From: an uncultured Planctomycetaceae bacterium
GTDB lineage: Bacteria; Planctomycetota; Planctomycetia; Planctomycetales; Planctomycetaceae
NCBI GenBank assembly: GCA_963815195.1
Contig: CAWFGE010000015.1
Location: 96,001-160,000 of the forward strand
Direction: 5' to 3'
Length of the DNA: 64,000 nt
Part shown: positions 131 to 50,740 of the stretch, one piece after another
Layout of the letters: the number at the start of each line of letters is the position of its first letter
Numbering within the stretch: position 1 is the stretch's first letter
Translations under genes and position numbers: made by a program
Notes under the pieces: generated by a model
What the model saw: the letters and a program-made list of their open reading frames with translations, nothing else
Told to the model about the DNA's origin: nothing
Databases searched by the model: none

Positions 131-155
131 AATTCGGACAGACCGTAACGGGTTT

Positions 156-773: not shown

Positions 774-980
774 ATTTACCGCCCGTGGGAAGGGAATCCA
801 AAAAAACCTCTAAAACGTTCGCGTGTATTCTAGTGGTTCTTCCGAGGGAAAAAATGCAAAAACAACGGGGAAACGCGGAAATCCCAAAATCGAGAAATCT
901 TCCCGACGGATTCTTCGTCTCCGGTTCGCTCGCTCCCATTCTCCCCCGTTTCGTCCTTGGCGCCTTGGTGGGTGAACGAA

Positions 981-3080: not shown

Positions 3081-3249
3081 GAGGCCTCTCCTCAATCAAT
3101 ATCAGGTGGGAAAAACGGTCCAAATCGATGCTTTATGGTAACAGAATCTCCCGCAATCGCGAGCGAACGGCGGAATCAGATCCTGCTCAGGCGTTCGGGG
3201 GATTGCGGGGGCCGGTTGGATGCCGGATAATTGTTTTGAGGAGAATTGG

Positions 3250-33853: not shown

Positions 33854-34138
33854 TCAGGAGCGGATATTCAGAACCTGCTGCTCGTTTTCCGACAAGCCTT
33901 CCGAAGCCGCGTTCGAACCAACCGGAAGCTGGATCACAGCGACTTTGTCGCCGGGGACAATGTCGCCCTGAAGGAGATTGAGAATATCCCCGGCTGGCAC
34001 GTTCGTTTTTACAATCCAGGTCGAAGAAGAGAACTCCATTGCATAAGGATCGATGCGATTCTGGATGGCAAGGGAGAAGCGATTTGGATTCCGCCCCTCC
34101 TCCGTGACGAGTTTGAAGACGATGAGATGCGTGTTCAC
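33854..34138 (-). CDS. Small ferredoxin-fold (Cas2/VapD-like) protein
   Basis: HLIVFKL...SSTWIVKTN...IVPGDKVAVIQL pattern. Confidence 0.5.
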   Translation of the reverse strand: MNTHLIVFKLVTEEGRNPNRFSLAIQNRIDPYAMEFSSSTWIVKTNVPAGDILNLLQGDIVPGDKVAVIQLPVGSNAASEGLSENEQQVLNIRS

Positions 34139-34646
34139 TGAAAGGCCCTTTGCAGCAATGACATAATTCGTCCCGCCTTGCGAATTGCAGCTTGATAGTC
34201 GAATTCAGGCCTTGGAACCGGGCAGCGAATTTCCCGGAAATTGCGATTTTCCCAAAAGTTTTTGGCTTATCTATATTTTTGTACATAGTGGCATGATTAT
34301 GCAAATCTGCGCAGACATCGCTCCGGCACCCCACGCTAGGGTATTGAACTATCGTATATTAACCAAATTGATGCACGTATTAAATCCCACGAAAATGTCG
34401 ATTAGGCGATTCGATTCTATGGGATGTTTTGGGATCCAATCGAGCATACCTCGGCACGAGTGGAACACTTGAAGGATGGATCAAAGCGGTCGTATCAGAT
34501 CGCGAAACTACAAAGGGTGGAAAGCCGAGCCTGCCAGCATTCGGAGGGGATTTGTCCGAGATCGAGACCCGATAGACAAAATAGCAGTTCGAATGTCAGG
34601 AGGATCTTCTCAAGAAATTGCCCCCCTTCAATCCGAGCCATCTTCC

Positions 34647-36401
34647 ATGAGTGATCACGTTATTGCGGTGTTTGTTTCCCAATCTGGGGGGCAACATCAG
34701 CTTTCAGTGCAGTTAGAATCGCGAGGCCTGAAAGTGCTCGTTGCGCAGTCTTCCGAGCAACTCCACCAGTTTGTCAATACCCACCGCATTGATGCGGTGG
34801 TGGTGCAGCAGAATCTGGGGGGATTTTTGACGGGCCTCGAGATTCTCCAGCGGCTCCGCGAACAGCTTCTTCGGCCCTTGCTCGTGGTGATCGGCGAGTT
34901 GTCGGAAGCCGAAAACCTCCAGGCCGCTGAATTGCGGATCGACCATGTTTGTTCTTGGGATGAAGGGGCTGACCGAATCAGCTCGTCCATTTCGGATTTG
35001 CTGAGCTTAGCCCGGCATCACGGGTTCCTGATTCCCGCGGGGGCGCGGCAACTCGTGGCAGAGTCCGACCACGTCGGCATCATGCCCCAGTTGGTCGTGC
35101 AACTCATGCGGTATCTCCAGGATGAGAATGCCAAAGTGACGGAGTTGGCCAAGGACATTTCCTCTGATGCGGCTGTGACGGCGGAACTGATCAAATTGAT
35201 CAACAGTTCCTCGTTCGGACTCAAGACGAGAATCACCCACGTCGAGTCGGCGGTGAAATATCTGGGGATCCGCCGGACGGTCTCTTTGGTGTTTGAGTTG
35301 TCATTCCACTCCATGCGCCGGTCGTGGCACGATCGATTGCCGCCGGAATTGATGACCTGGTTCGGCATGCGAAGCGTGGTGAGTGCGAGCGTGGCTTCGG
35401 CCTTCGCCGTGCGCCGGAAAAGCGTGCCACCGGATACGGTGTATGTTCTGGCCTTGCTTCAGGATCTGGGGATTCTGGTGTTCTGCCAAGCGTATCAAGA
35501 CCGGTACCGCGGCCTGCTTTCGCAGGCGCAATCCGTGGCCTTGTTGCAACTGGAGAAGGTGGAGAAAGCCGAATACTCGTTCAGTCATGCCGACGTTTCC
35601 GCGGCCCTCCTGCAACACTGGGAATTTCCCGCGTCGATGATCCAGCTTGTCTTGGAGCACCACCATTCCATCGAAAACCTCTCCCAAACGGATCGGAACC
35701 TGCGGCATTTGATGCAACTGGGGGAAGCGGTCGCCAACTTACGGGACGTGCCTTCGCCCCAACGCCACGCGCGGTTTCAAAATCTCCTGTCGGAATCCTC
35801 CGTGACCTCGGCCATCGACGCCAAAGCCTGCATTGCCTCGGCGATCGCGCATTCGCGGGAAGTCACCCGCTACTTTAATTTGGCGGTTCCCGAAAAGGAC
35901 GCTTGGTGGGACCTCAGTCAGCGGATGCAAGAGTTTGTCAACAATGGCTCCCCGAAACCTACTGCGGTCCCGCCGGTTTTCCGCGGACCTGGCTTCCAAC
36001 GCACGAAGCCGTCCGTTGTGATCGTGATTGATGATGAGCCGTATATCGGACAGATCATTACGCAGTACCTAAGCGGGTTCCCCTTGGAAGTGAAATGTTA
36101 CGAATCCCCGCCGGAGGCGTCCCATCTGACTCCAGACGTCGCCACGATCCTGTGCGATGTTCATTTGCAAGGCAAAAGTGGGATTGAGGTGGTTCGCGAA
36201 CTGCGCGCGACTGGCTATACGCGTCCAATCATGATGATCAGCGCGGACCGCACCCGGAATACCGTTCTCAGTTCGATCGAAGCGGGCATCATTGACTACA
36301 TCTCCAAACCGTTGTCGAAAGCGGCCCTTCTCGAAAAGTTCCGAAAGCACGGATTATTACCTCAAACAGCGTCAACTCCATCCCCAGCGAGATCGGATTA
36401 G
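34647..36401 (+). CDS. REC-like-HDOD-REC protein, copy 2 (intact)
   Basis: Close paralog of 31695-33447; HDOD motifs and C-terminal receiver (VIDDE, CDVHL, KP). Confidence 0.88.
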   Translation: MSDHVIAVFVSQSGGQHQLSVQLESRGLKVLVAQSSEQLHQFVNTHRIDAVVVQQNLGGFLTGLEILQRLREQLLRPLLVVIGELSEAENLQAAELRIDHVCSWDEGADRISSSISDLLSLARHHGFLIPAGARQLVAESDHVGIMPQLVVQLMRYLQDENAKVTELAKDISSDAAVTAELIKLINSSSFGLKTRITHVESAVKYLGIRRTVSLVFELSFHSMRRSWHDRLPPELMTWFGMRSVVSASVASAFAVRRKSVPPDTVYVLALLQDLGILVFCQAYQDRYRGLLSQAQSVALLQLEKVEKAEYSFSHADVSAALLQHWEFPASMIQLVLEHHHSIENLSQTDRNLRHLMQLGEAVANLRDVPSPQRHARFQNLLSESSVTSAIDAKACIASAIAHSREVTRYFNLAVPEKDAWWDLSQRMQEFVNNGSPKPTAVPPVFRGPGFQRTKPSVVIVIDDEPYIGQIITQYLSGFPLEVKCYESPPEASHLTPDVATILCDVHLQGKSGIEVVRELRATGYTRPIMMISADRTRNTVLSSIEAGIIDYISKPLSKAALLEKFRKHGLLPQTASTPSPARSD

Positions 36402-36465
36402 TCGCCTCGTCTCGGCGGCCCCAACACATCTCCAGATTCTCCCTGAGCAATGGTCCCTAAATCCA

Positions 36466-37850
36466 ATGAAAAAACTCCCAAACGACACGCCCCCCTTATT
36501 CCCGCAAACCGGTGATCTAGTTCGGAAGGGCAAGTCTCCGGCCGCCGTATTGGCTCTTCTCATATGCATTATCTTGTCGGTGCAGTTATTCGCTGTGCTT
36601 TTCGGGGGGACCTTGCTTTTCGGCTGGTCTTCTGAAGATTTTTTCCTGCATGTGGTCCTTGAGGCGACGGGGGCCGCAATTTCACTGTCTGTCGCCTATG
36701 GCTTGTATGCGAGAACGATCGCGGAAATGAAGCGTTCGGAACGGAGTCTTCGGTTAACGAAGTCGGCCGTCGAGCATGCGAACGAAGCCATGTTCACGAT
36801 CGGCGCGAATGGACGTTTCGTCGATGTCAATCAGATGGCCTGCGAACGACTGGGATATTCCCCGACCGAGTTGCTGTCCCTTTCGATTTGGGACATCAAT
36901 CCGCAATGCTCCCGCGAAAATTGGCCGGCGTTGTGGCAGGATGTCAAACACCAACGACGGCTGCATTATCCCACCGAGCATCGAACAAATGCCGGCGAAC
37001 GGATTCCGGTGGAAGTTTCCAGCTTGTTTGTGGCCTTTGAAAACGAAGAGTACCTCTGCGATTTCGTCCGTGACATCACCGAACGGATGGAAGCGGAAGC
37101 GGAACTGGAAGAGAGCGAAGCCCGCTTCCGGCAGATTGCGGACCATCTGAAGGATGTTTTGTGGATGACGAACGCCGGCGGCGACGAAATCATCTACATC
37201 AGCAAAGCGTATGAATCCATTTGGGGACGAACTTGCGAGAGCCTCTATCAGGTCCCGGAAAGCTGGTGCGAGGGGATTCATCCGGAGGATCGGAACCGCG
37301 TCCAGAGTGCGTTTTACGAACGGGCGGCTCTGGGCGGCTACGATGAGCAATTCCGGGTCATTCGCCCGGACGGCACGGTTTGCCATGTCTCAGCAACCGG
37401 ATATCCGATCCGAAACGAAGCGGGCGAAGTTTACCGCATCGCGGGCGTGGCGCACAACATCACCCGGCAAAAGGATTTTGAAGCGGAATTGGAGAAATCG
37501 AAAGCCGCCGCCGAATCGGCCAACCGCGCCAAGAGTCAATTTCTCGCCAACATGAGCCACGAAATTCGCACGCCCTTAAACAGCATCCTCGGATTCACGG
37601 AAGTGCTCCGCCGGGGCGTCGCCGCGGAAGAAGAGCAAGACACTTGCTTGGAGACGATTTCCACTAGCGGTCGCCACCTGCTCACCTTGATCGACGACAT
37701 TCTCGATTTGTCCAAAGTCGAAGCGGGGCAGATGGAGTTCGAGAGAATCGCCTGCAGTCCCCATGCGATTATCTGCGATGTCCTGTCCACGCTTCGCGTT
37801 CGGGCGCAGGAAAAGTGCCTGCAGTTGGAGGCGGAGTGGGCCACAGTGTG
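36466..37850 (+). pseudogene. TM-PAS-PAS-HisKA sensor kinase truncated before the HATPase domain
   Basis: AKSQFLANMSHEIRTPLN, ILDLSKVEAG; homology ends near AQEKCLQLE with no N/G boxes. Confidence 0.8.
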
Positions 37851-37990
37851 GTCAGATTCGCGTCGTGCTGCTGACGGAGATGGGCGGACCACCTCCTTTT
37901 TGCCAGGTCTGTTACGTTCGCCTTCCCCTGCCTCCCCTTGACCCCAGCGTGGGTGGTGTGCAAATCGTGTTGGACTCCAACACTCCCAAG

Positions 37991-38794
37991 ATGCGGTTGT
38001 GTTGCCCGCATTGTGCCGATTTTCTCACGGTTTCTCCCGAAGTGGCGGGTCACCGCCGCCGTTGTCCCGCTTGCCGAGGATGGTTTCGGTTGGACCTGAT
38101 GAAGGAAGGCGCCCATGCCGATCGCGGAGAGGCTCACTCCCCCGCCGCCGAAGCGGTGACGGCCGGGCCGGTTTTCGTGGATGTTGACAACGAACCTTCA
38201 CTCGTGTCGTCTCCCGCTTCCCAGCCCGAAGCTTTCGAACCAAAACCCAAACGGGCGAAATCGCCCCCACCGCTTCCCTGGCAGAGATCACCGCTGCCGC
38301 CGCGGGAGACGCAGTGGGTGGAAGAAGATGACTTCGAAGCCGATGAGGAAGATGGGTTTCCCGTCCTGGTCGAACCCGACGAGCCACAGTATCACAGGCA
38401 TGAGAGCCGTCATTCCGGCCTGCCGGCGCTTCCCTACCACGTGATCTTTCGCCTGCTGGCTTGGACGCTGTGGATCGGCTTTCCTCTCGGCTGTTTGTTC
38501 ATTGCGGCTTCGCAGAAAAGCGTGTTTTTCGGGCTGTTGGACGCGGCTTCGTGGTTTCTGCCCGGATTGAAGATCCCCGTGCGGTTGGCCAACCTCATTA
38601 TGAGCATTTGTTTTCGCTGGATTCGGTGCGCCGGATGCGGCGAATCCTTTCCCGCCCACACGCGTTGGACGTGCCAGTGTGGATACACCGCGCCGCGGGA
38701 GAGGAACCTGTTTCATTTTCGCTGCCCCATCTGTCGCGATTACCTCCGCGGATTCAATTGCCCGCAGTGCGAATCCACCATTTTGGTGAAGTGA
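37991..38794 (+). CDS. Zn-ribbon membrane protein
   Basis: N-terminal CPHC..CPAC, Pro/acidic linker, TM segment, C-terminal CAGC, CQC, CPIC, CPQC. Confidence 0.7.
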   Translation: MRLCCPHCADFLTVSPEVAGHRRRCPACRGWFRLDLMKEGAHADRGEAHSPAAEAVTAGPVFVDVDNEPSLVSSPASQPEAFEPKPKRAKSPPPLPWQRSPLPPRETQWVEEDDFEADEEDGFPVLVEPDEPQYHRHESRHSGLPALPYHVIFRLLAWTLWIGFPLGCLFIAASQKSVFFGLLDAASWFLPGLKIPVRLANLIMSICFRWIRCAGCGESFPAHTRWTCQCGYTAPRERNLFHFRCPICRDYLRGFNCPQCESTILVK

Positions 38795-38797
38795 ACG

Positions 38798-40557
38798 ATG
38801 CGTCGTCCCGCCCAACTCGCAGAGCAGGTTATCGGGAAAGCCGTGGCGGAAGCCACACGGGGCTGCGGCGTTTGGCCGCTGCAACCGCATGTGGTGGCGT
38901 TGGAGCCGCCGTTCGATCCCTACGATCGATACGAGGTCACGGCGTGGGACTGCTTCGTGAACGGCTGGGACGCCGGATGGGAGAGCAGCCAGATCAGGCG
39001 GTTGCTGCCGACGGAGCCGATCGACGTGTGGAGCGAAGTGACGTTGCCCGCCGACATCGACCAGCTAACTTCAAACACCCGTCGGCTGTCGGTGGCCCGC
39101 TTCCCCGAGGATGAGGCGACGGTGGCTAAAGCCGAGCAGTTGCTGCGGGCCCTGCCCCATCTCACTCAGCCTGTTTCGTTTGAAATCGTGGGGCTGGGGC
39201 CGATGCCGGAATATGACAGCGCAATGATGCAGCAGTTGGCGCGGGACCAAATGCAAGGACGAGCCGTGAATTTACAAACCGCCATCTGCGGTTGGAAACC
39301 GCCCCGGATCGTCACCCAATTCGCGGGCGCCCTCCCGGATATCCGCCGGCTGGAGAGGTTGCTGCTGGCTCATTATCCCAACTCCGCCGTGGTGTTGGAG
39401 GAAATCATGTCGGATGACCCGATGGACAAAGTGGACGTGGGACGGGAGGGCTACGGCGCAAGTTTGGCCTTGCACGGCGGGTATTGTCTGCCCCTGCGCA
39501 CGGTGACGCGGATGGACCCCGATCCTTTGACTGTTCCCATCTCGGCGATGGATCATTTGGGCAAAGAACAGTGGGCGGCGGTGCGGGTTCGGTTTCAGCG
39601 GGCCCTCGCGCCGTGGGAGTCGCTGTTGCGAACGGCCTTGACCGATCCCCACAAGCCAAAGCAGATGCTAATCTCGGATATCAGCGAACGGCACTTGGCC
39701 AGCAAGTTCGCCTCGCCGCTGTACGCCGTGGGCATCACTCTCACGGCCTCGACCAAGAGCGTCTTCCGGCAACTGGTGGGCTGGGCAACGCAGTTCTCCA
39801 CGCCGGACCATGAGTTGTTCTGCAACGACGGCGAATGGGTGAACGGGCAGTTGTCCGACGAAGAGCGGCAAAGCTTGTCCTGGACATTGACGTTCCGGCA
39901 GACCCATCGGCCGGGGATGCTGCTCAACTGCCAGGAACTCTGCGCGCTGGTGCATCTGCCCAATGCCACCGTGGTCAGCCAGCGATTGGAAACCGTCAAA
40001 ACCCGCACCCGGCCCGCTCCCCCGCCCCAGACGCCGCCGGGCGTGATTTTGGGCGAGAACGTCCATCGCGGCAAACGCCGGCTGGCCATCGTCCCGGAAG
40101 AACACCGCCGCCTGCATTGCTACGTGGCGGGAGCAACCGGAACGGGGAAATCGACGCTGCTGCTGAATGGCATTCTGCAGGACATCGAAGCGGGGCACGG
40201 CGTGGGCCTGCTCGATCCGCACGGGGATTTAATCAAGGATGTGCTCTGCCGCATTCCGGATCATCGGGTCGATGATGTCGTTCTGTTTGATCCCTCCGAC
40301 AGGGAGTTTCCGTTCGCTCTCAATATCTTTGAATCGCGGGGCGAACAGGAACGAGATCGGGTGATCGCCGAGTTCTTGATGGCCCTTCAGAAATATTTCC
40401 CGAGCAGTTGGGGGCCGCGATTGCAGCGGACGCTAACCTTTACCCTTCTGGCGGTGATGGAAGCACTCCCCCACCCCACCTTGGACGATGTGGAGCGAAT
40501 GTTGACCAATCCCGCCTTCCGGCGGCAAATCAGCGCAAAACTCACCCGCCAGCGGAT
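38798..40557 (+). pseudogene. Type IV coupling protein / HerA-like ATPase (TraD/TrwB-like), truncated by IS21
   Basis: RRLHCYVAGATGTGKST, LLDPHGDL, WGPRL; interrupted at the IS end at 40558. Confidence 0.8.
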
Positions 40558-40630
40558 TGTTCGGCGTCAATTAGCTCTGCTCTTTAGCGTCAATTAGATT
40601 GACCGTGCAAGAGGGAGAAATCGACGGGCA

Positions 40631-41083
40631 TCAGCCTTTGGAGCCAGGCTTTGACCCGTCCGAATCGGCCGAGTTTTTCTTGTTTTTCTTGGCGGTTTCC
40701 AAGCGGTAGCTGGGGATGTTCAACTCGATGATGATCGAGTGATGGATCAAACGGTCGATGGCCGCCGCGGTCGTCATGGGATCCTTGAAGATTTGCTCCC
40801 ATTGAGAGAAAGGCAGATTGCTGCTGATCAGAAGGCTGCCCCGTTCGTAGCGTTCGGCCAGGAGCGTGAACAGCACTTCCATCTCCTCGCGGCTCTGTTG
40901 AACATAGCCCAAGTCGTCGATGATCAGCGCTTCGTAGCGGCTGAGCTTTTTGATCCACTTCTCCAACCGCAGGTCGCGTTTGGCCCGCAGGAGTTCTTGG
41001 ACCAGCATCTGGCAGGTTGTGAATAACACCGTGCGGCCTTGACGCGCGAGTTGGTCGCCGAGTGCGGATAACAGATTCGTCTT
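40631..41083 (-). pseudogene. istB: IstB 3' half (from Walker A Lys)
   Basis: KTNLLSALG...LIIDDLGY...LISSNLPFSQW...AAIDRLIHH...SYR. Confidence 0.88.
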
Positions 41084-41086
41084 GAC

Positions 41087-43162
41087 TCAGCCATTGTTGT
41101 GCCCCCTTGGGATAGTGATTTGCTCGGTTTCGTGATTTTTGAGTTTTAGCATGGCGTCTTTAACCTCCTCAGTTTTGGGAAACAGATAGCACCGATAAAT
41201 TGGATCGACAGAAACCACGATCTGTCTTTGCTCAATTTTATGATACATCCAGGATATGTTGTGCCCGATTTCCTGAGCCATTTCCGCGGCGGTCCAGGCA
41301 TGGGGCAGGTTCTTTGCACGCGGGCTTTTGATCCGGTAGCGATGTCTTAACTTGTTCACGATTTGCGAGGTGAATTGTTCGCCACGACAGGGATGATGGC
41401 CTTCGCGATTGAGATCCGCCGCGATCATTTCACTCGACCGGCCTTCGCTGGTTTCTTGCCGGATGCGTTCCACGATGTGCTCTTCCAAGTCCGTGTGTTT
41501 CATTGAAAAACGCCGTAGGAGAGCCGACGTTTCGGTCACCGAACCGCCGGCCCAGACCATGCGAATTTGCACCAGCCCATCCGATTGCCGGTGAAGATTG
41601 ACTCCCGTAATCATCGTCCGCAACAACGACTTCTTCGCCTCCCAAGACAACTCGGGCCAGAGTTCGGGAAGCTGCCGCCCGACATCCGCGAAGGCGTCTC
41701 GCAAGGACTTTGGTACGCGGATCGGTTGGGGAATTTCTCGGCGGGCATCCGCCAGGTTTTCTTCGGCTTGCTTTTGCGCCAACAAAGCCGATTCCCATTT
41801 CTCTTCCAGACTGGCCGCAATCAAACGGTTCTTGGGATCGACACAGTCGTATTGTTGCTCGGCCCGATGGGCGGCGTATTGCAAGCGCCCGACGTCTTGC
41901 TCCAAATGCCGAACCACGTCCGCATGCGTGCGAGCCCTTTCGGCGGAGAGTTTCTCCAACACATCGATCTCGGCAGGCCGCAGCACTTCAAAGAAAGCTT
42001 CCGTCACCGCCTCGTCGATCTTGTTGCCGCCCAAGTACTGGCAGGATCGTTGGGCGTAATGCCGATAGCCAGAATTGCATGAGTATTGAAAGCGGTTCTC
42101 CTTGTAATTCACTCCCATCGTTCGACCGCATTTTCCGCAGCGCAATAAGCCCGTTAACAACGCGCAGCCGTTGCGGATGGCTTGCTTGGCGGCGAGTCGT
42201 TGTTGGATGCGGAGGTTGTTTTGAGCGATTCGGCGTTGGTTGTCTTCGTACTGCTCCCAACTGATATAGGCCGGGTAGATGCCGGGAATTAAGACCGACC
42301 ATTCCGCTTGGGGCCGGCGCGTGCGACCCGTGGCAGGACGACCGGGAATTCGTAGCGTGGGATTGACTTGCCGACGCCCATGAGCAAACGCGCCTGCATA
42401 AGCCGGGTTATGCAGGATCGAGCCCAACGAAGCGGCCGTGGCTTCTCTCCAAAACACTTCGCCCGCATAAAGGCCCGAAACTTGGCGCCGGGGAATCTTC
42501 AAATTTTTCTTGGCCAGGAACGTCAAGACTTTTTGAATCGTGCCCAACTCCACGAACTTGTCGAACACCAAATGCAATCGCTTTTGAATGCTCAGATCGG
42601 GATCGAGCATTACCGCCTTGTCCAGATTGCGGACCAAGCCCGTCGGCAAGTTTTGCACCAACTCGCCCCGCGCGGCCTTCGACAATCGACCCGCGTCCAA
42701 TCGCAATCGGAGGCTATGGAGTCTTGCCGAAGACATCGTGCCCTTCAAGCCTAAGAGGAGCCTGTCGTTGAAATCCCGTGGATGATACAACCCATCCACA
42801 TCACCGATGAGTGTGTCAAAGATCGCACACAATTCCAACAGTCGATGCCAATCCACATCGTTGCGGGAAAGCCGTGAAACTTCATAGCCCAGAATGATGC
42901 CGACCTTACCCAAGCCGACGTCGGCGACCATCTGTTGAAAGGCCCCGCGTCCCGCCGTTTGCGTGGCCGATTGCCCTTGATCATCCTCCAGGATGCTGAC
43001 TTGTTCCGGCTTCCACCCCAACTCCAACAACCGGGTTTTCAAGGCTCGCTGGTTGTGGGCACTCTCTTGGTTTTTCTCGACCTGCTTCGTCGTGCTCTGA
43101 CGAAGATATACGATCCCGCGGCGATTCAAATGGCTGGTGCTGACTTTCATCGATCCGTTCAT
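41087..43162 (-). CDS. Large serine recombinase (resolvase + recombinase + Zn ribbon)
   Basis: VYLRQST catalytic Ser, EVSRLSR, DRLLLGLKG, ILHNPAYAG, LLTGLLRCGKCG. Confidence 0.92.
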   Translation of the reverse strand: MNGSMKVSTSHLNRRGIVYLRQSTTKQVEKNQESAHNQRALKTRLLELGWKPEQVSILEDDQGQSATQTAGRGAFQQMVADVGLGKVGIILGYEVSRLSRNDVDWHRLLELCAIFDTLIGDVDGLYHPRDFNDRLLLGLKGTMSSARLHSLRLRLDAGRLSKAARGELVQNLPTGLVRNLDKAVMLDPDLSIQKRLHLVFDKFVELGTIQKVLTFLAKKNLKIPRRQVSGLYAGEVFWREATAASLGSILHNPAYAGAFAHGRRQVNPTLRIPGRPATGRTRRPQAEWSVLIPGIYPAYISWEQYEDNQRRIAQNNLRIQQRLAAKQAIRNGCALLTGLLRCGKCGRTMGVNYKENRFQYSCNSGYRHYAQRSCQYLGGNKIDEAVTEAFFEVLRPAEIDVLEKLSAERARTHADVVRHLEQDVGRLQYAAHRAEQQYDCVDPKNRLIAASLEEKWESALLAQKQAEENLADARREIPQPIRVPKSLRDAFADVGRQLPELWPELSWEAKKSLLRTMITGVNLHRQSDGLVQIRMVWAGGSVTETSALLRRFSMKHTDLEEHIVERIRQETSEGRSSEMIAADLNREGHHPCRGEQFTSQIVNKLRHRYRIKSPRAKNLPHAWTAAEMAQEIGHNISWMYHKIEQRQIVVSVDPIYRCYLFPKTEEVKDAMLKLKNHETEQITIPRGHNNG

Positions 43163-43265
43163 GCTCCAGTTCCTCCGTTAGAATGACGACGATTTGCTGG
43201 ATGATCCGCTGCTGCTCTGGAAGAGTCAGACGGTTCCACACCTGGTCCGTGGCAATGGGTGACAT
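42981..43265 (-). CDS. Small accessory ORF of the recombinase element
   Basis: GGAGG RBS; MSPIATDQVWNRLTLPEQQRIIQQIVVIL helical segment; tail overlaps the recombinase. Confidence 0.5.
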   Translation of the reverse strand: MSPIATDQVWNRLTLPEQQRIIQQIVVILTEELEHERIDESQHQPFESPRDRISSSEHDEAGREKPRECPQPASLENPVVGVGVEAGTSQHPGG

Positions 43266-43560
43266 CGGCTTCCCTCCGAGAAAGAATATCCCGAAAGGTA
43301 GTCACCAAATCCTGGAGCGCGTCCGGGGTCAGACAGGAAGTTTTTTGGGGAGGAGCGGTGGAAAGGTTCGTGCTGCTGACGTCGATGTAGGTCATCTCGT
43401 CAGGAAAAATCTCGACTTGATAATACTGACGATAACCTGGCAGGCGGGCTAAGCCGAACAAATCAAATGTTCGGCCATAAAGCGGATGGGCCGGATCGAT
43501 GACGGTGATCTCACCGCGCGATAACTGAGTGACCAGAGGTGTCTTGTGATGGTCGGACCT
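43159..43560 (-). CDS. Accessory ORF (resembles Y4bD/DUF5372-type) lacking its own start codon in the integrated state
   Basis: ITVIDPAHPLYGRTF motif; frame open from the junction; stop overlaps the recombinase ATG. Confidence 0.6.
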   Translation of the reverse strand, partial: RSDHHKTPLVTQLSRGEITVIDPAHPLYGRTFDLFGLARLPGYRQYYQVEIFPDEMTYIDVSSTNLSTAPPQKTSCLTPDALQDLVTTFRDILSRREADVTHCHGPGVEPSDSSRAAADHPANRRHSNGGTGA

Positions 43561-43919
43561 TTCCCGTCCCCGGTTGGCCGAGAAAACACACATTGAAATG
43601 CTGGGCAATCCACTCCCCGCGGGCCAACTCCAAAATCGTTTGTTTGTGGAGGCCGGGCACCGCTTGGAAGTCGTAATCCTCCAGTCCCTTCTCCACCGGA
43701 AAGTTCGCATTGCGGAATCCGGCTGTTCAAGGCATTGGTCTGCCGGGCCGCGACCTCCAGTTCGGTCAACCGGAGCAGGTACTGCTCGAAGGTCTGGTTC
43801 GAGGCACTCGCTTCGCGGGCCAACTTCTCGTACTCGGCCAGGATTGTCGGCAGCCGGAGTTGCTTGAGGTTGGCCTTGAGGAGCATCTGGTTGGCATCGT
43901 GTTTCGGGTTCGGGGACAT
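43559..43919 (-). pseudogene. istB: IstB 5' half (to Walker A), frameshift near 43715
   Basis: LKANLKQLRLPT..YLLRLTELE; FPVEKGLEDYDF; NVCFLGQPGTGK. Confidence 0.85.
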
Positions 43920-45365
43920 AATCGGAATCTCCTTGGAAGGAGGACAGGAACTGGTCAAAATGGCTCAAGCTCGGACAGGGAACTTGAACCGACAACACGC
44001 CGGGGTGTTCGCACTCGATCGGAGTGGAAATGCCCTCGGACGATGTTTCCGACAGGCGGAGGGCGGAGGCTTCCACGCGGCGAATGATGCGATCGGCATC
44101 GGCTCCTTCGGGGCCGCGAAGTTGCTCGATCGCCGCCTGCACGCGCGAGAGCGGATGCTCGGCCAGCAACTGCAGCACCCGCACGAATTGCCGCACGCCC
44201 GCGTGGGGACCGTGCCGCCTTTCCAAACGCTCGCGGAGTTCGCCGAACACGGCGGGCAGCTTCCAATCGCGATACACGTTCGCATGATCCAAAGCCGCCG
44301 GGCGACGCGTTAATGTGGTCAAATAGTGCAAAGGATCCAGCACATCATCGCCCGCGTGATAGCTCCGTTCATGGACGGCGATGACGGTTTCGTTCAGCAC
44401 AATCTCGACACGATCCACATAGCCTTTGACCGTCACCGTTTGAAACGCGGCGTGGCGAGGCACGCTGTAGTTCACATTGTCGAACCGCGCGAACTGATAC
44501 TTGTTGACCTTCGCCGATTGCCGGATGCAGGGATCAAACCGCGGCACGGGAAGCGGAGCGGATCGCTGTTTTTCCTCCGCGAAGCGTTCCCCGATCGTTT
44601 GCGTCTGGCCGCTGCTGCAGCGAGTCGTGTTCCTTCAAGCAACACTCGCGAAGATAAGCATTGAACTCTTCCATGTCCTTCACGCGAGGCACCGGCGTGG
44701 ACCATTTCCGCTCCAACGTCTTCACGCGGTTTTCCACCACCGGCTTTTCATTGCCCCGCGCGGGCATGCAGAACAGCGGATCGAACACGTAATGACTGGC
44801 GAGCGCCTGGTAACGCGGATTGATCTTCCGCGAACGCCCGGTCAATAACTCGGTGGCCACGGTCGTCGGATTGTCCCACCAGACTTCTTCCGGCACGCAG
44901 CCGAAAAAATCAAACGCCTGCGTCATGCCCTCCAAGATCGCTTCGGTTCGCTGCGTCGGCAGCGCCACCGCGAACGGAGCGTTGGAGTACGACCAGACCA
45001 GGATCAGCACGTTGACCTTCCGGCGGCCGTCGGGGAAGTCCACCGAAATCTCGCCAAAGTCGGCTTCGATTCGCTGGCCGGGCCGATGATCCAAGGGGAT
45101 GAACGTCTCGGCATGGTTTTTCCGATGCCGATTCACGAACCGCCGCACGGCATCATAGCCGCCCGTGTATCCGTCTTCGTCCCGGATCCGCTCGAAGATC
45201 CGCATCCGCGTATGCCGCTGCTTGGGCGGCGCGGATTCATCCTCTTTGAGAATCTCCAGGATGCGATCGTGAAACCGTCCCAATTGGGGAGCCGCTTGCT
45301 GCCGCCGTAAGGCGTCGGCTCGCCCGCGCCTCGCAAGACCTCACGAATCTTTTTTCGCGAGTGAT
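43900..45365 (-). pseudogene. istA: IstA transposase, 5'-truncated and frameshifted
   Basis: HSRKKIR, PGQRIEADFG, VWWDN, GNEKPVVE, RFDNVNYSVP, HERSY. Confidence 0.85.
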
Positions 45366-45479
45366 GAGTTTCGCTGCCGCCAACTTGCGAAGCTCGCCAT
45401 AAACCAGCGGCAGCAGTTGCTCCGCCAACGAGGGATCGCCGGATTGGATTTGCGAGAGGATTCGGGTGACGTCCGACAA
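45366..45479 (-). pseudogene. ECF sigma factor N-terminal fragment fused to istA remnant
   Basis: SDVTRILSQIQSGDPSLAEQLLPLVYGELRKLAAAKL, typical planctomycete ECF start. Confidence 0.75.
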
Positions 45480-45779
45480 GAGAATGGCCTTGAAAGAGGT
45501 GCAAACCAGCACCAGTATAGCATCTCTCCAAAAGGAACACCCGCATCAATTCCAAGCCTCGCGATGCAGGAATGCATCAAAAACAATGGAAGAATTCAAC
45601 GGGACGCCACCAAGTTCACTAGCGCGAGGATCGGCATTGCCCTCCCCGCCCACGGTTGAATGTCCCTACGGGTGTTTCACTCAGATCGCACCAAAAGTGG
45701 AAAACGAATAACCCGCGGGTCCAGAGGGCCTGCAATTCTGGTTCGCCAGTTTGAACGATTCGGGGAAGTGGCCCCCAAG

Positions 45780-45952
45780 CCTGCACCCGCTGACCCTCAA
45801 ATTCCCCATCCCACAACCTCTCCCGACACGCCCTCAGCTGGTTTTTCCACCACGCAAATTGGCGAACTGGTCTTCGTCCCTCAGAAACGGTTCGCCTAAT
45901 CCGTCAGGCTGGCCAACCGAACGCGACACGGGCTAACGTCACGCCACGTGCG
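45780..45952 (+). repeat. Dispersed repeat, copy A
   Basis: Core ggctggccaaccgaacgcgacac...acgccacgtg, also at 50617-50674 and 55976-56120 (both reverse). Confidence 0.7.
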
Positions 45953-45963
45953 ACCGTGAAGAT

Positions 45964-46202
45964 TCAAGAAATCGTCGCCCGATACTGAACCTGCTCCAAC
46001 CGGCACGCCACCCGAAGGGAACCGGTCAAAACGTAAGCCCGCGGCGACCACCCAAAGCTGAAAACGCGGAAAAGATTGAATTGCGGCCCCACATCTTCGG
46101 AACACCGCAGTTCGTTGGCGGTGACGTAGAACGGGGAGTACTTCCCCAGGCCCGTCGTTTTCACTTCGATCAGCAGTTCCGATTCATCGATTTCGTTGAA
46201 GC
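45964..46202 (-). pseudogene. DUF3883-like nuclease C-terminal fragment
   Basis: LLIEVKTT..PFYVTANE..LFRVF; 5' part replaced by the CRISPR array. Confidence 0.7.
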
Positions 46203-46237
46203 CGCGATCTGACGTACCCGGAATACGCCGCGATCCC

Positions 46238-46634
46238 GTTTCCGCGGTTGAATGACCGCGGCCCCATTGAAGCAAAACGGCAAATCGGATAGATAAGTTC
46301 AACCTCATCGTTTCCGCGGTTGAATGACCGCGGCCCCATTGAAGCTCGCGCTGAAACCGTTGGTAAATTCCCGTTGGTCCAGTTTCCGCGGTTGAATGAC
46401 CGCGGCCCCATTGAAGCGCCCGCAGCTCCGCCAACATCCGCAGCCCGCGCGTGCGTTTCCGCGGTTGAATGACCGCGGCCCCATTGAAGCGAGTTCCACG
46501 AAGTGGACCGTGGTGGCGCGGATTAACGTTTCCGCGGTTGAATGACCGCGGCCCCATTGAAGCTAACGGTGCTCTAAGTTGTCCTCCCTTAGTCCTATGT
46601 TTCCGCGGTTGAATGACCGCGGCCCCATTGAAGC
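46238..46634 (+). CRISPR. Orphan CRISPR array, 6 identical 36-bp repeats, 5 spacers of 35-37 bp (type I-G/I-U-like repeat)
   Basis: GTTTCCGCGGTTGAATGACCGCGGCCCCATTGAAGC at 46238, 46310, 46382, 46455, 46528, 46599; partial repeat ttgaagc at 46196-46202. Confidence 0.97.
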
Positions 46635-46871
46635 GGGAGTTGTAATGTCCATTGTCCTGTGGTCCGTTGATGGCGTTGTTTGGTAATTGCATCAATCCGT
46701 GATTTGTTCCGGTCGAACGCGAATGGTAGGATGGACAAACTTGAGACTGCGGTCGGGTGGGTCGATTTTCGATACAACGAGTCCATTCTTCCCCGAAAAT
46801 CCTCCGTGTTTTAGAATCCTGTCAGTTTCCCAGATTATTCAAAGCCTCCCTCGATTGCAGGCGCGGCGGTT

Positions 46872-48326
46872 ATGGTCACGAACCAGCTTTTCATTTCCTA
46901 CTCCCACGTGGACCGGGTATTTGTGGATCAACTCGCGGCGAGGTTGACCCAGGCGGGGTTCCGCGTATGGTACGACCAGAATCTAAAAAAGGGCCTGAGT
47001 TGGTCCCGGCAGGTCGAGAACGAATTGAAAGCTTCCACGGTTTTCCTGGTGGTACTGACGCCTTCCAGCGTCGAATCGGAGGCGGTCCGCAACGAAATTC
47101 ACTACGCCAAAGATCTGCCCCAGATGAAGCGGATCATCCCCTTGCTGCGCGAGGACTGCACCGTCCCGTTGCCTTTGATGGGGATTCACTGGATCGAAGG
47201 CCGGGCCGCGTTGGACCCGTTGATGACCGATCTGGTGAGGTCGCTGCAAACGGCCTCATCCGAAGAGGAAGCTGAGGATGAGGTGTTGATGGCGTCCTCT
47301 GGGACGACGGTTTTTGACAAGACGGTTTTCGAGAAGACGGTTCACGTTCCGCAGTTTCATTTCGGGGGGGTTGTTCCGCCGGAGTATTTCATCGGGCGAA
47401 ACGAAGAGTTGGTGGATGCCGAGAGCATTCTGCGCACCGGGCAGAGTTTTCTGTTGGTGGGCGTCCGCCGGGCCGGCAAGACGAGCTTTTGCAAGAAGCT
47501 GATTCACGACATGATGGGCCGGGAATCCAATTCAATGCTGATGAGCTATTTGAATTTGGAGTCCTGTCGCGATCTAACGATCGACACCTTTCTGACTCAT
47601 ACGATCCTCAATATGACGGGGGAAATCGCCCGGCAGGTGTTTCGCTGCAAGCACGTGGAGTTGAACGCCTCGGACTTGTCGAAGGTGCGTCCCGATTTGC
47701 AGGACGACGCGACGTTTCAACAATTCTACCACCTCAATCGCCTCGTCGTGTCGCGCACGCACTTCCGGGAAGACGCCCCCGTGCCACGGTTTCTGCCACA
47801 GGATTTCGTCGGGTTCACGGCGGATCTCTTGGAGATTATTCGGGCGCGCGGCTGGAGTGGGTACGTCATCCTGTACGATGAAGCCAACCATCTGCCTAAG
47901 GGCTTGTCGGTCGAATTGGTGACGGAAAACGTCGAAGCGTTGGACTCGGCCCAACTCACCAGCTTGTACGCGGCCACGCCGGAAATGATGGATTCGTTCT
48001 GCACGCTGGACGATTTGTTCGGCCACCAAATCCACATCGGACCGTTCGATTCGCGCGAGGACATGCTTCGGCTGTTGGCGCGGTACTACCACGGCGACGA
48101 TGCGAGCCTGGACGATCTGCCCATCACCGAAGACGCCCTGGACGCTGTTTGGAACCGTTCGCAAGGCCGGCCGTTTCAGATGCAGTTTTTGCTGGGCTAC
48201 AGCTTCAAACAAGCCCGCCGCGACTTGGCCTGTCTCGTGGTTCGCGAGCACGTGGACCATGCCTGGGAGAAGTTGGTTCGCCAACGTCCCGAATATTTCG
48301 GCCCTCATGCCGCGGGGAACAAGTGA
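46872..48326 (+). CDS. TIR domain + STAND/AAA-type ATPase
   Basis: FISYSH..VWYD..SVES..VRNEI (TIR); FIGRNEEL, GVRRAGKTS, ILYDEA, GRPF. Confidence 0.85.
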   Translation: MVTNQLFISYSHVDRVFVDQLAARLTQAGFRVWYDQNLKKGLSWSRQVENELKASTVFLVVLTPSSVESEAVRNEIHYAKDLPQMKRIIPLLREDCTVPLPLMGIHWIEGRAALDPLMTDLVRSLQTASSEEEAEDEVLMASSGTTVFDKTVFEKTVHVPQFHFGGVVPPEYFIGRNEELVDAESILRTGQSFLLVGVRRAGKTSFCKKLIHDMMGRESNSMLMSYLNLESCRDLTIDTFLTHTILNMTGEIARQVFRCKHVELNASDLSKVRPDLQDDATFQQFYHLNRLVVSRTHFREDAPVPRFLPQDFVGFTADLLEIIRARGWSGYVILYDEANHLPKGLSVELVTENVEALDSAQLTSLYAATPEMMDSFCTLDDLFGHQIHIGPFDSREDMLRLLARYYHGDDASLDDLPITEDALDAVWNRSQGRPFQMQFLLGYSFKQARRDLACLVVREHVDHAWEKLVRQRPEYFGPHAAGNK

Positions 48327-50425
48327 TGGCCACGCTTCGAATTCTCCAAGGCATTTCCAGCGGGACGGTTTATTCGCTATCGCAGGAACGCACGGTCTTG
48401 GGCCGACATCCCGCGTGCCAGATCGTAATCGACAGCGGAGCCGTCAGCCGCCAGCATGCGCAGATTTTGGAGAACCACGGGCATTTTTACCTGGAAGATT
48501 TGCGCAGCCGCAATTGCACTTATCTCAACGGAATCGCCGTCGAAGGCCGCGCGGAGCTGAAGGAAGGCGATACACTGAAAATCTGCGATACAATATTTGC
48601 GTTTTCCGAGAACGGCTCGGATTCGGTGAGCGCCTGCGATCCGCTGAAAGCCGAGTTTCGCCGCTTGGCGGAGATCCTGCCCGAACAGCATGTGCATTAC
48701 ACCGGACCACTCTTGACGGAGATTCAGGCCGACTTGCTCAAGGAAGAATCCGTGGGCCGACCGATTCTGCAGCCTGGGTTTCAGGGGATCGTGGTCTTGG
48801 ATGCCGCCCATCAGCAATCACTCTTGCAAATCGACGCGTTTCTGCGATACGCCTACGTCTGCATTTGCGAGGCGTTCGGTCATAACACCGACACGGCGGC
48901 GTTTCACCCCGAACAGGTGGCTCAAGTTCTCAAAGACGAATCGACTTCGTTGTTCTGCTTCCTCAACGTGCAACGCTTTTCCGAGGAAGACCTCCATCGG
49001 CTGCGCGGGCTGGGCTTTACGCAGTCCCACCATCAGGTGCTTTATTGCGGCCTCAACGATTACATCGCCGGAAAGTCGCTGGCGTTGATCGAGGATCCCG
49101 CCGACGGCCAAAACACCATGACCATCGATTCCCAACTAGGATTCTCCTATCGCACGGGAATCTCTGCCTTCGAAACCGATTCCTCCATACGCATACCGAT
49201 CCGGCAGACGAGAAAGGAGTTTCAGTTCGACATTCAGCAAGTGTTGGATTCGCGGGACGACCTAGAAGGACTGTGCGGCAAAGTGCTGGAAGCCGTGTTT
49301 TCCATGTTTCCGCAATCGACTGAGGGGCGTGTATTCTACCACGATCCCGACGAGAAATCGTTGCAGCCGCTGGCGGTTCGTTCCCGCGACGTCCCTGCCA
49401 CCGCTCCCGCTACGTTCGATTCCGCGCTGGTCCGCGAAGTGGCCGACACGGGAATCGCCAAGCTCGCCCTGCTGCCGCGAGACAATATAAGCGTTTCGAG
49501 TTTCAATGTTCGATCATTGATGTGCGTACCTTTGGTGAGTCCAGAGGGCGGCACGTTGGGCGCGATTCAACTCGAATGTGACGGCATCCGCCAGCGATTC
49601 ACCGAGGATGACTTGCATTTCTTGACGAATGTGGCCAGGCAAACGGCGCTCGCCTTGGAAAACCACCAGTTGCGGCAGCGGCTCCTTCGTTCGAAGGAGT
49701 TCGAGCGGGAGTTGGAATTTGCCCGGGAGATTCAGTTGGGCATGCTGCCGGACGTTCGTCCCTCGATTCCCGGTTACGAAACCTTCGATTACTACGAATC
49801 GTCATTTCAAGTGGGGGGGGACTATTTCGATTACATTCCGCTTCCCAATGGCAACTTCGCCTTGGCCGTGGCGGATGTGGCGGGCCGCGGCGTGCCGGCG
49901 GCATTGATGATGGCCCGCTTGCAATCCTCCGCGCGGATGGCCTTGCTCACGGTCCCCTCGCCTTCGGACGCCATAAGCCGCCTCAACGCCGAGATCGCCT
50001 CACATGGACTGGGCTATCGGTTCGTGACATTTCTGCTGCTCGTATTGGACCCGCAGCAGCATCACGTGACGGTGGTCAACGCGGGGCATCTTTTGCCCCT
50101 GTTGCGCCGGATGAACGAAGTGACGGAGATTGGAAGCGATATGGTGGGAATTCCCTTGGGTGTGTTGCCTGATCAAGAGTTTCAAGAGCAAACCGTCGAA
50201 CTCGCTCCCGGCGATACGCTGCTCCTTTTGACTGACGGCATCACCGAAGCCATGGATCCGGCGCAAAATCTCTATGGCCGCCATCGCTTGATCCGCTACC
50301 TGGCGAACGGGCCAACTTCCGCCCAGGAACTTGTCGAGGGGTTGATCGGCGATTTGGAACGCTTCTGCCCCGGATTTCCGAAATCGGACGATAGCTGCGT
50401 CGTCTGCCTGAGGCGGCTGCCTTGA
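48326..50425 (+). CDS. FHA - unknown insert - GAF - PP2C/SpoIIE phosphatase
   Basis: LGRHP, VSRQHA, SRNCT (FHA); SLMCVPL (GAF); VGGDYFD, ADVAGRG, NAGH, TDG, DD (PP2C); start overlaps upstream stop (TGATG). Confidence 0.88.
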   Translation: MATLRILQGISSGTVYSLSQERTVLGRHPACQIVIDSGAVSRQHAQILENHGHFYLEDLRSRNCTYLNGIAVEGRAELKEGDTLKICDTIFAFSENGSDSVSACDPLKAEFRRLAEILPEQHVHYTGPLLTEIQADLLKEESVGRPILQPGFQGIVVLDAAHQQSLLQIDAFLRYAYVCICEAFGHNTDTAAFHPEQVAQVLKDESTSLFCFLNVQRFSEEDLHRLRGLGFTQSHHQVLYCGLNDYIAGKSLALIEDPADGQNTMTIDSQLGFSYRTGISAFETDSSIRIPIRQTRKEFQFDIQQVLDSRDDLEGLCGKVLEAVFSMFPQSTEGRVFYHDPDEKSLQPLAVRSRDVPATAPATFDSALVREVADTGIAKLALLPRDNISVSSFNVRSLMCVPLVSPEGGTLGAIQLECDGIRQRFTEDDLHFLTNVARQTALALENHQLRQRLLRSKEFERELEFAREIQLGMLPDVRPSIPGYETFDYYESSFQVGGDYFDYIPLPNGNFALAVADVAGRGVPAALMMARLQSSARMALLTVPSPSDAISRLNAEIASHGLGYRFVTFLLLVLDPQQHHVTVVNAGHLLPLLRRMNEVTEIGSDMVGIPLGVLPDQEFQEQTVELAPGDTLLLLTDGITEAMDPAQNLYGRHRLIRYLANGPTSAQELVEGLIGDLERFCPGFPKSDDSCVVCLRRLP

Positions 50426-50616
50426 CCGGAACTTCGCCTCAGAGATTCTTCAGTGGTGCCCCACAGTGCGCAGGGCTGATTGTGTCGAAGTCTGACATTT
50501 CAATCCGCGCGACCCGGGATCGGAAGGATCTCCGTTCATCACAGCGCGACTTCCGACCATCAGACCAAAATCTGAATTTGCAGGATGCCAACGCTGGCCG
50601 ACGTCGGAATTCGCCA

Positions 50617-50674
50617 CACGTGGCGTGTGGTTGGGCCGTGTCGCGTTCGGTGGGCCAGCCGAACGGATAGGGCG
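50617..50674 (-). repeat. Dispersed repeat, copy B
   Basis: Minus strand atccgttcggctggcccaccgaacgcgacacgg...acgccacgtg. Confidence 0.7.
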
Positions 50675-50740
50675 AAATACCAATTGTTTTGACGGGCGAA
50701 GAACAGTTCAGCCAATCGGCGTCTCCATCGCCGGAGCGAT

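Follow-up and report, generated by a model that had tools for sequence, protein, structure and literature searches.

A large serine recombinase mini-element within an IS21 istB gene carries an accessory gene predicted to be complete only when the element ends are joined

The 64,000-nucleotide stretch of DNA analyzed here (the window), which comes from an uncultured Planctomycetaceae bacterium, contains a 2,478-bp element (counting one AA core) that is inserted into an IS21 istB gene, at the codon for the Walker A lysine, and that has its attachment site within the opening codons of one of its own genes, an accessory gene. It is best explained as a minimal large serine recombinase (LSR) mobile element, a parasite of insertion sequences that uses conserved codons as its target. 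Judged from the sequences, the accessory protein is encoded only by the joined ends (attP); integration parts the RBS and start, which stay at the right end, from the body of the gene, which lies at the left end in a frame other than that of the host gene. It is very likely that this accessory gene is real and gated by attP, and through it the element can probably sense whether it is inserted or free. We hypothesize that the product is a recombinase cofactor made only on the circle and favoring re-integration, a model that as a whole has a probability of about 0.5. The features are listed in Table 1.

Table 1. Positions of the mini-element, its genes, and the interrupted IS21 in the window
Feature	Position	Strand	Remarks
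LSR mini-element	41082..43559	-	Copy comparison and empty allele
attL crossover	43559..43561	-	Walker A Lys codon of istB begins with this AA (43561-43560); the element itself starts at 43559
attR crossover AA	41082..41083	-	Host istB continues after AA; basis, copies and C9 empty allele
Accessory-gene start segment	41083..41108	-	RBS-like purine run 41108-41102, ATG 41094-41092, first four codons; +1 frame of LSR 3' end
Accessory-gene body	43159..43560	-	133 codons; DUF5372-like SH3/KOW barrel and C-terminal helix (predicted)
ORF2	43134..43265	-	Own RBS and ATG (43265); overlaps accessory gene and LSR start; here the frame extends to 42981
Large serine recombinase, 691 aa	41087..43162	-	Resolvase, recombinase, and zinc-ribbon domains, coiled-coil hairpin, extra C-terminal helical/winged-helix-like extension
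IS21 istB 5' half, ends at Walker A lysine	43560..43919	-	One frameshift near 43726
IS21 istB 3' half	40631..41083	-	IstB match; empty allele at C9
IS21 left part, istA frameshifted	43930..45367	-	Sequence matches

An earlier note, made from the sequence alone, had described the element with coordinates that held on re-reading of the sequence, but it had missed the interrupted istB, which was found by Pfam IstB matches; the two halves match adjoining parts of the IstB model (53-106 and 105-236). Nine near-identical copies (99.4-100%) occur in this genome across several different istB genes, and a single AA in the empty allele at C9 indicates conservative insertion without target duplication. 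All nine left ends continue identically after the AA, whereas the bases that follow it in seven right ends are G-A-C-G (two), A-A-C-T (four), or G-A-G-C (one). The core is therefore AA; the AAG that the note had taken to be shared by the ends is ruled out by right ends that diverge directly after the AA, and its AA crossover is confirmed by the copies and the C9 empty allele. Loose ends lie at 43561 (attL) in run X1 and at 41080, 41082, and 41083 (attR). Among 16 elements, the dyad symmetry of the joined ends is highest at the host-defined center (mean of 12.9 of 22 matches, versus 3.7 to 7.0 of 22 at 12 shifted centers), in agreement with the symmetric circle junction proposed earlier. The window element thus combines the conservative exchange at a two-base core and the symmetric attP that characterize LSRs. 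LSR integration proceeds by attP x attB (PMC11722253); given this route, the conservative one-AA insertion, and the nine near-identical copies, the attP form must have existed.

When the ends are joined, the RBS and the ATG at 41094 come into frame with the start-less ORF 43560-43159 to give 137 codons, and this predicted gene was reproduced in 7/7 full-length copies of the genome. The first ATG, GTG, or TTG of the body in the window is at codon 34, beyond the conserved motif. The crossover lies 4 nt past the LSR stop (41089-41087), and the ATG, which had been said to overlap that stop, overlaps the last two LSR sense codons and ends 2 nt before it. The accessory frame is the host +1 frame. 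A -1 frameshift from istB into the accessory ORF was considered and rejected: slipping by -1 at the junction enters the third frame and does not reach this ORF.

A word-based protein search with the accessory ORF gave no matches, and a profile search afterwards recovered the family, which comprises 3,919 clusters at 50% identity. Element ends were set from the interrupted host gene by using host-motif rules written after the sequences had been viewed; host genes were located by Pfam scans plus host motifs because BLASTX against local ORFs had located them at only 4 to 5 loci. Both-end testing was impossible at 34 of 60 distant and 30 of 49 close loci. The 34 distinct elements with host-defined ends, which cover five target classes and include the window element and a sister copy, all form an in-frame fusion: in each, the frame set by a start codon (33 ATG and 1 GTG) 13 to 40 nt before the crossover continues unbroken into the accessory motif. 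Only one of them has a start in a different frame that also remains open. A single junction would be in frame by chance in 1 of 3 cases, and the in-silico circularization of homologous elements that the earlier note had suggested as a check thus exceeded that expectation. As the set clusters into no more than 6 LSR lineages at 60% identity, or 4 at 50%, the chance odds are nearer (1/3)^4 to (1/3)^6 than (1/3)^34. Three of 13 held-out loci fit the unchanged rules, and all three were in frame; 6 of the 13 were not placeable. Five further elements, placed by eye from host-peptide continuity, were also in frame (5/5). The RBS test was permissive (8 tetramers) and counts for little. Indels near the crossover are also restrained by att-site geometry, a circumstance that counts against the frame argument.

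In 25 distinct left ends, the sequence immediately inside the element shows a coding-type pattern of variation up to the crossover: in codons 5 to 16, variation by codon position is 0.08/0.07/0.38. Counted from the crossover, the first 30 codons of the accessory frame contain no stop in 25/25 of these left ends, and the host frame over the same codons contains stops in 24/25. All 25 right ends have an in-frame ATG 4 or 13 codons before the junction (both positions, 8; distal only, 4; proximal only, 13; neither, 0; Fisher p=0.039, with kin non-independent), such that the start codon shifts between two positions and the frame is still kept. Of the earlier proposal that integration turns the gene off and excision turns it on, completion only by end joining is supported by the stop-free codons, the coding-type variation, and the conserved frame.

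The assembly to which the window belongs contains no attP junction, a search of the collected loci with the motif of the close family found none either, and the contigs listed showed no terminal redundancy. Logan contigs of 4 runs gave 2 listed joints, neither of them a circle joint, no viral contig matched a degenerate attP motif, and no small circular record appeared among 60 of 144, or 60 of 420, plasmid rows listed. These searches do not show absence, since contigs drop rare forms. No RNA data set carrying the element was among the matches listed, and the coding strand of the integrated form gave no match to a sigma-70 promoter. In 4/4 four-gene relatives, a TTGAC-led promoter-like site was noted by eye, with no control, downstream of the DUF5372 ORF and ~430 to 440 nt in from the left end; on the circle, this ORF would become the last gene of their operon.

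The recombinase matches PF00239, PF07508, and PF13408, all over cut-off, and residues Y19-R21-S23 and C342/345/362/374 are invariant in 24 rows. Its predicted model (pLDDT 67 to 93 by block) contains a coiled-coil hairpin in the zinc-ribbon domain (helices 397-439 and 446-475), and the enzyme has the catalytic domain, recombinase domain, four-cysteine zinc ribbon, and hairpin that define large serine recombinases. ORF2, a second small ORF overlooked in the earlier note, encodes a conserved, roughly 40-residue W-x2-L helical peptide to which Pfam and Atlas searches assigned no family. Like the LSR, it has its own RBS and ATG, and it is a candidate directionality factor of the integrated state.

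The accessory product is, by profile comparison and structure prediction, a divergent DUF5372-like SH3/KOW barrel plus helix. The ORF in the window does not match DUF5372 (PF17342) above the Pfam gathering cut-off, nor does either of two close homologs, unlike the ORFs of NGR234 and L005, which score 90 and 88 bits. HHalign relates the accessory protein to DUF5372 with a probability of 89% (E of 2.4e-6 over 57 columns), and the best Atlas matches are DUF5372 clusters (0.95, 226/256 features), with recognition under the trusted level. The DUF5372 assignment anticipated earlier is therefore upheld at the profile level and by the same position in the element but not by a match over the Pfam cut-off. 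The predicted fold has a mean pLDDT of 80.5, and its best match (Z of 5.8, rmsd of 3.5 over 60 residues) is a generic SH3/KOW barrel that is uninformative on function. Foldseek returned no structural match at E<=0.001, no RDF was among the 50 VIA structural neighbors listed, and the likeness to solved RDFs consists of generic SH3/KOW matches only (Z of at most 5.8). Relatives that target IS630 and IS4 encode only a short helical peptide and lack the barrel; homology of this peptide to the last helix of the full protein was considered and was not significant (HHalign probability of 5% or less). In a three-chain model of LSR, ORF2, and accessory protein, the accessory chain was placed on the LSR with a score of 0.51 versus 0.00 for the best control, ranked as "weak support," and the control with the LSR replaced also gave 0.00. 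The runs agree in at least 26% of contacts, partner pLDDT is at least 56, and the output defines no interface. The mark was reached by 116/157 solved and 2/215 mismatched pairs, and at that mark only 18/157 solved pairs, plus both mismatches, scored 0.60 or under; these calibration counts are only rough for a three-chain job with custom alignments.

The mechanism that we propose has the inserted element producing only the LSR and ORF2, which together would excise it. On the circle, a transcript leaving the LSR gene would cross attP, and the DUF5372-like protein would be made; it would bind the recombinase and shift the balance to integration, either by opposing an excision factor (candidate ORF2) or by aiding the use of loosely matching targets. 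Integration would then break the accessory gene again, making a self-resetting state switch. We consider it fairly likely that the accessory product acts on the LSR, and its favoring integration is slightly short of an even bet. The direction of its effect is argued purely from logic. A superfamily-wide form of the proposal is more tentative still: IS-parasitizing LSR mini-elements might use attP as a translation switch, with a circle-only DUF5372-like integration-direction factor, or anti-RDF, opposing ORF2 as the RDF. If this is true, the cofactor would be opposite in sign to the known serine-integrase RDFs, within a three-gene self-resetting toggle.

The same gating data, and the same weak LSR-dependent placement in the model, are compatible with a circle-only protein that is a true RDF, blocking immediate re-integration and driving excision of sister copies in trans, so that positive feedback would produce bursts of excision. 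Nine genomic copies could respond in trans, and RDFs are described as having no common structural theme (PMC11795197). We regard this as unlikely, because an RDF is already required at the first excision, when the accessory gene is still start-less; loss would be the likely fate of a circle that does not replicate and produces a blocker of integration; and ORF2, with its own start, is the better-placed RDF candidate. It is also possible, if distinctly unlikely, that the product makes no contact with the LSR and is a transcription or translation regulator or influences target capture via the IS machinery. The tied fold matches (Z of 4.5 to 5.8) include KOW/NusG/Spt5 and ribosomal-protein domains, and the targets are conserved codons in several unrelated IS genes; however, these fold matches are generic and are tied with SH3b and PsaE-like domains, the barrel is missing entirely in the short-peptide relatives, and the modelled placement is lost when the LSR is replaced, although this last point is weak.

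Translation itself, rather than the protein, may be what matters, with ribosomes that cross attP coupling into ORF2 or the LSR and so raising the amount of recombinase on the circle. The accessory stop overlaps the LSR ATG in 14/25 close relatives, the window included, and the closed loop of coupled genes envisaged earlier is borne out to that extent; in the other 11 the stop lies upstream by 2 nt (2), 35 nt (8), or 56 nt (1), so the overlap is not conserved. With the ORF of the four-gene relatives stopping about 190 nt ahead of the next gene, and with a protein that is under coding-type constraint and predicted to fold well, we consider this coupling very unlikely to be the explanation. The least probable reading, to which we give almost no weight, is that the frame match is an inherited accident and that the ORF is read from internal starts or by host read-through or is vestigial. 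The deep lineages are few, RefSeq annotates DUF5372 genes from internal starts, and in one database protein, P0062, istB reads in frame into the accessory ORF. Internal starts in the homologs, which the earlier note had named as evidence against its proposal, are a divided matter: 13/25 left ends have no ATG, GTG, or TTG within the first 23 codons, but 12 homologs have a GTG at codon 10, 13, or 18, and L115 and this genome's second family have an internal ATG. Against an accident stand the coding-type constraint on codons upstream of any internal start, an accessory frame out of reach of a -1 slip, the many antisense targets, which make host read-through impossible, and a start codon that moves between two positions yet stays in frame.

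The circle-only cofactor that we favor would belong to an element with a known relative. Plasmid pNGR234a of Sinorhizobium fredii carries a four-gene LSR repeat of about 3.3 kb (DUF5372, HTH, small gene, recombinase), which we take to be NGRRS-1, with gene names y4bA-D (Perret et al. 1997). The two share a related LSR (39% identity), a start-less DUF5372 ORF at the left end, an RBS and start at the right end, an in-frame join, and insertion into an IS gene. The window element differs in having three genes in 2.48 kb, with ORF2 and no HTH gene, and is thus of the same superfamily but another architecture; it targets the istB Walker A codon in sense, whereas the NGR234 repeat targets DDE transposase codons in antisense.

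State-dependent completion of genes has precedents in the SSV1 integrases, the BPs repressor, and the TnpX promoter. In Tn4451/Tn4453, the circle junction reportedly builds a promoter for the gene of TnpX, a large serine recombinase. Promoters are likewise made at the junction of the joined ends in ICEclc and ICEKp1 (PMC13023037). These systems resemble the predicted behavior of the window element in that joined ends turn on expression in the circular state, but their control is transcriptional and acts on the recombinase gene, whereas here it would act on the frame and initiation signal of a separate gene. The "suicidal" archaeal integrases of SSV1, pTN3, and pT26-2 have an att site within their own gene, which is intact only as an episome (PMC8371274). 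They share with the window element an att site in the element's own gene, whole only in the episomal form, but there a tyrosine integrase is split, whereas here the enzyme is a serine recombinase that stays intact, with the crossover past its stop, and only the RBS and first four codons are cut off from the accessory gene. In the integration-dependent immunity of mycobacteriophage BPs, attP also lies in a non-integrase gene, whose product is set by the integration state (PMC4557955). That product has two C-terminal forms, of which the integrated one, a shorter repressor that keeps its start, is active; the integrated window gene is start-less and is predicted to be off, with the free form on. 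Large serine integrases of phages that work with RDFs, such as that of SPbeta, share the domain order, two-base crossover, symmetric attP, and small partners (PMC11722253, PMC12286644), but the window element has no phage genes, uses loose targets in mobile elements, and has an extra C-terminal extension and a partner that is possible only after excision. A search of largely open-access literature turned up no paper in which an accessory gene of an LSR is gated through its start codon or in which attP assembles a start codon. The same search listed no paper on DUF5372 or on IS-targeting LSR elements, although elements of this kind may be among the entries in the target tables of PMC10083194.

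A three-gene element without a repressor could set the direction of recombination from the state of its own DNA, and DUF5372 gains a testable role. Serine integrases are widely used in genome engineering, and a product that favors integration or broadens target choice would be a new control part for them. The split gene also explains the arbitrary N-termini that gene callers give to the family: database calls have no common N-terminus, and the motif begins at residue 1 to 350 in 149/150 proteins. Insertion of these elements at conserved codons inactivates IS21, IS630, IS3, IS4, and IS66 genes and may bring IS halves into new combinations; the istB 3' half in the window, for which C9 holds the empty allele, appears to derive from a different IS21 than the 5' half.

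The element (minus strand, 43559-41082) interrupts an IS21 istB gene at its Walker A lysine and is flanked by the two halves (53-106 and 105-236 of the model), a target gene overlooked in the earlier note, whose coordinates for the element and its open reading frames (ORFs) were correct. Joining the element ends in silico yields a 137-codon ORF starting at the ATG at 41094. This ATG is indeed present at the 3' end of the large serine recombinase (LSR) gene but lies 2 nt upstream of the LSR stop rather than overlapping it, as had been claimed.

Features of the element and its surroundings in the window
Feature	Position	Strand	Basis or remark
Start-less accessory ORF	43560-43159	minus	ORF within 43559-41082
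ORF2	from 43265	minus	small ORF
LSR, 691 aa	43162-41087	minus	ORF and domain match
LSR C-terminal extension	41090-41500		~140 residues
Hybrid IS21 around the element	40557-45367
P-loop ATPase gene, cut by an outer IS21 end	38798-40597		weak HerA/TrwB-like matches
Putative ECF sigma factor, start cut by the other IS21 end	45367-45512		by eye
CRISPR-like array	46238-46634		six identical 36-nt repeats, spacing 71-73 nt

The source genome (8.87 Mb, 25 contigs) carries nine copies of the element at 99.4 to 100% identity (seven full, one cut by a contig end, and one partial) and one further 98-nt relic. All nine left ends are preceded by the Walker A G-K, in three istB types, and 7/7 right ends split apart directly past the AA; empty istB alleles on contigs C9 and C23 hold a single AA without duplication. 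Contigs from three public runs leave the window sequence at positions 41080, 41082, 41083, and 43561 and continue in the same alternative istB flanks, and metagenome contig L040 terminates exactly at the right-end AA and begins 3 nt ahead of the left one. The predicted symmetry of the circle junction was borne out, being centered on the host-defined crossover: the joined ends of 16 Walker A elements averaged 12.9/22 matches versus 3.7 to 7.0 at shifted centers. For 11 IS630/IS5-type elements the values were 11.5 versus 4.2 to 6.5, and the peak was weak in four antisense istA-type elements (8.0 versus 2.0 to 6.8). The fused 137-codon ORF occurs in all seven full copies and the LSR frame is unbroken in three; the broken frames in the others represent decay or assembly errors.

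LSR matches were found at 106 loci, 49 of them at least 50% identical (the close set), where host genes placed 30 left ends (25 distinct), 30 right ends (25 distinct), and both ends at 19 loci. The first 30 codons of the accessory frame past the crossover were free of stops in 25/25 distinct left ends, with stops in the host frame in 24/25 and in the third frame in 7/25, and codons 5 to 16, upstream of the conserved motif, varied by 0.08, 0.07, and 0.38 at the three codon positions. Internal starts in homologs, named in the earlier note as evidence against its proposal, were absent from 13 of the 25 (no ATG, GTG, or TTG within the first 23 codons); a GTG stands at codon 10, 13, or 18 in 12 cases. 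Right ends have an in-frame ATG 4 codons (13 cases), 13 codons (4 cases), or at both distances (8 cases) ahead of the junction; the two positions are never both empty (p=0.039, among kin that are not independent). The last 45 nt contain 34 ATGs, every one in the accessory frame, a count biased by overlap with the LSR frame. Two close relatives appear by eye to lie outside istB, in a tyrosine-recombinase gene (L007, right end) and another serine-recombinase gene (L056, left end). At a further locus, L024 (3585-3700), the LSR 3' end is duplicated in tandem with its ribosome-binding site and start.

Distant LSRs (32 to 46% identity) come in three layouts: four genes including a true DUF5372 gene, three genes as in the window, and a minimal one carrying a short helical ORF. 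Their flanks are for the most part insertion sequence genes. With crossovers placed by host motifs, 26/60 distant loci were testable (16 had no two-sided host match, 10 no recognized motif, and 8 no LSR 3' end); together with the 19 close loci, and excluding L007, they gave 34 distinct elements. In-silico circularization, a check suggested in the earlier note, restored the frame in 34/34, from an ATG in 33 and a GTG in 1: 16 in istB Walker A, 1 in istB after Walker B, 4 antisense in istA/ISNCY, 11 sense in IS630/IS5, and 2 antisense in IS4-type genes. The motif rules were drawn up after the sequences had been inspected; applied unchanged to 13 new loci, they matched 3, all in frame. Host-peptide continuity (IS3-like, IS66 tnpB, and istA, by eye) placed 4 more of these and 1 earlier locus, 5/5 in frame; 6/13 were unplaceable, and no counter-example was found among placed loci. 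Copies on the NGR234 plasmid confirm the ends independently of host motifs: all of four left ends part at one place, and among the matches listed query 4-3337 is repeatedly covered. The RefSeq start of the NGR234 DUF5372 gene is an internal GTG.

In a minimal lineage of ~2.3 kb (L069-L106), the target is the catalytic-glutamate codon of IS630, IS5, and IS4-type transposases, and the split gene encodes no more than a short peptide. A TTGAC hexamer lies 29 to 38 nt inside the left end in several members. A second LSR family in the source genome (34% identity; C21:190-2790, also C14, C19, C18, and C16) is inserted just past Walker B in istB genes of the same type, within their 3' half, and likewise fuses in frame; some istB genes thus hold two different elements.

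The accessory protein had no match in Pfam or NCBIfam, and the expected DUF5372/Y4bD relationship appeared only at the profile level (probability 89%; Atlas concurs weakly). A profile search gave 3,919 clusters (50% identity), of which 719 reached E<=1e-10, and the called N-termini of database members are unrelated to one another. Its model (pLDDT 80.5) combines a four-strand barrel and a C-terminal helix, with generic SH3/KOW fold matches only. In the database proteins P0062 and P0004, the accessory ORF is reached in one frame from an istB-like N-terminus; these joins are frameshift mutations or assembly errors. ORF2 is conserved, its own start included, in the three-gene and minimal layouts; no family was found for it. 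The LSR extension, past the usual zinc-ribbon domain, has two helical domains, the last winged-helix-like; it had no family match and might serve as an additional module for DNA binding or as an integral one for directionality.

The sequence shows that the accessory gene is whole at attP (the joined ends) only, and that the host cannot provide its start because the accessory frame is the host +1 frame or the host gene is antisense. A frame match by accident is very improbable; the tested set comprises only 32/13/6/4 LSR clusters at 90/70/60/50% identity and so amounts to few independent trials, and the codon-level signal and shifting start codon weigh more than the raw 34/34. The closed loop of coupled genes that had been proposed, with the accessory stop overlapping the LSR ATG, holds in 14/25 close relatives but not in the remainder, and translational coupling as the explanation of the layout seems unlikely.

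LSRs integrate from attP, according to the accessible text of PMC11722253. Repeated conservative insertions need this substrate, and the joined form must therefore have existed, although none was seen directly. We infer that the circle-only product, a candidate LSR binder, would favor integration, with excision left to ORF2 or to the LSR by itself. A three-chain prediction (LSR, ORF2, and accessory protein) gave a placement of 0.51 versus 0.00 in three controls, one with the LSR replaced (contact agreement at least 26%, partner pLDDT 56 or higher). Of the 157 solved complexes, 18 passed with a score at or below 0.60; of the 215 mismatched pairs, 2 passed, both in that range. This weakly supports a place for the accessory protein on the LSR. 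A regulator making no LSR contact is unlikely, as is, slightly less so, a recombination directionality factor acting in trans.

TnpX reportedly has a promoter formed on the circle. The split layout itself is real and conserved, apparently new in its particulars with a known underlying principle. In the accessible text of the respective papers, attP splits a gene in SSV1-type integrases (PMC8371274) and likewise in the BPs repressor (PMC4557955), and a promoter forms on the circle in ICEclc/ICEKp1 (PMC13023037); that of a large LSR survey (PMC10083194) mentions neither insertion sequence targets nor a split accessory gene. No description of the layout was found in the literature covered, which was thin for subscription papers and did not extend to the 1997 NGR234 paper.

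The surrounding IS21 is a hybrid. The empty istB on C9 agrees with its 3' half and has a 5' half that matches the copy at C7:79180 and not the window. In a comparison that took in contigs C7, C8, C9, C12, C16, C18, and C23, mismatched halves occur in ~3/7 full copies, and the outer flanks in the window are pieces of two different genes, the other halves of which were not located. The cause is recombination among copies of the element or else misassembly over the 2.5-kb repeat. No cas gene was noticed near the CRISPR-like array in the ORF list of 34000-52000. A ~120-nt REP- or MITE-like repeat recurs at dozens of genome sites, on C7 (near 81700-81950) and on many further contigs.
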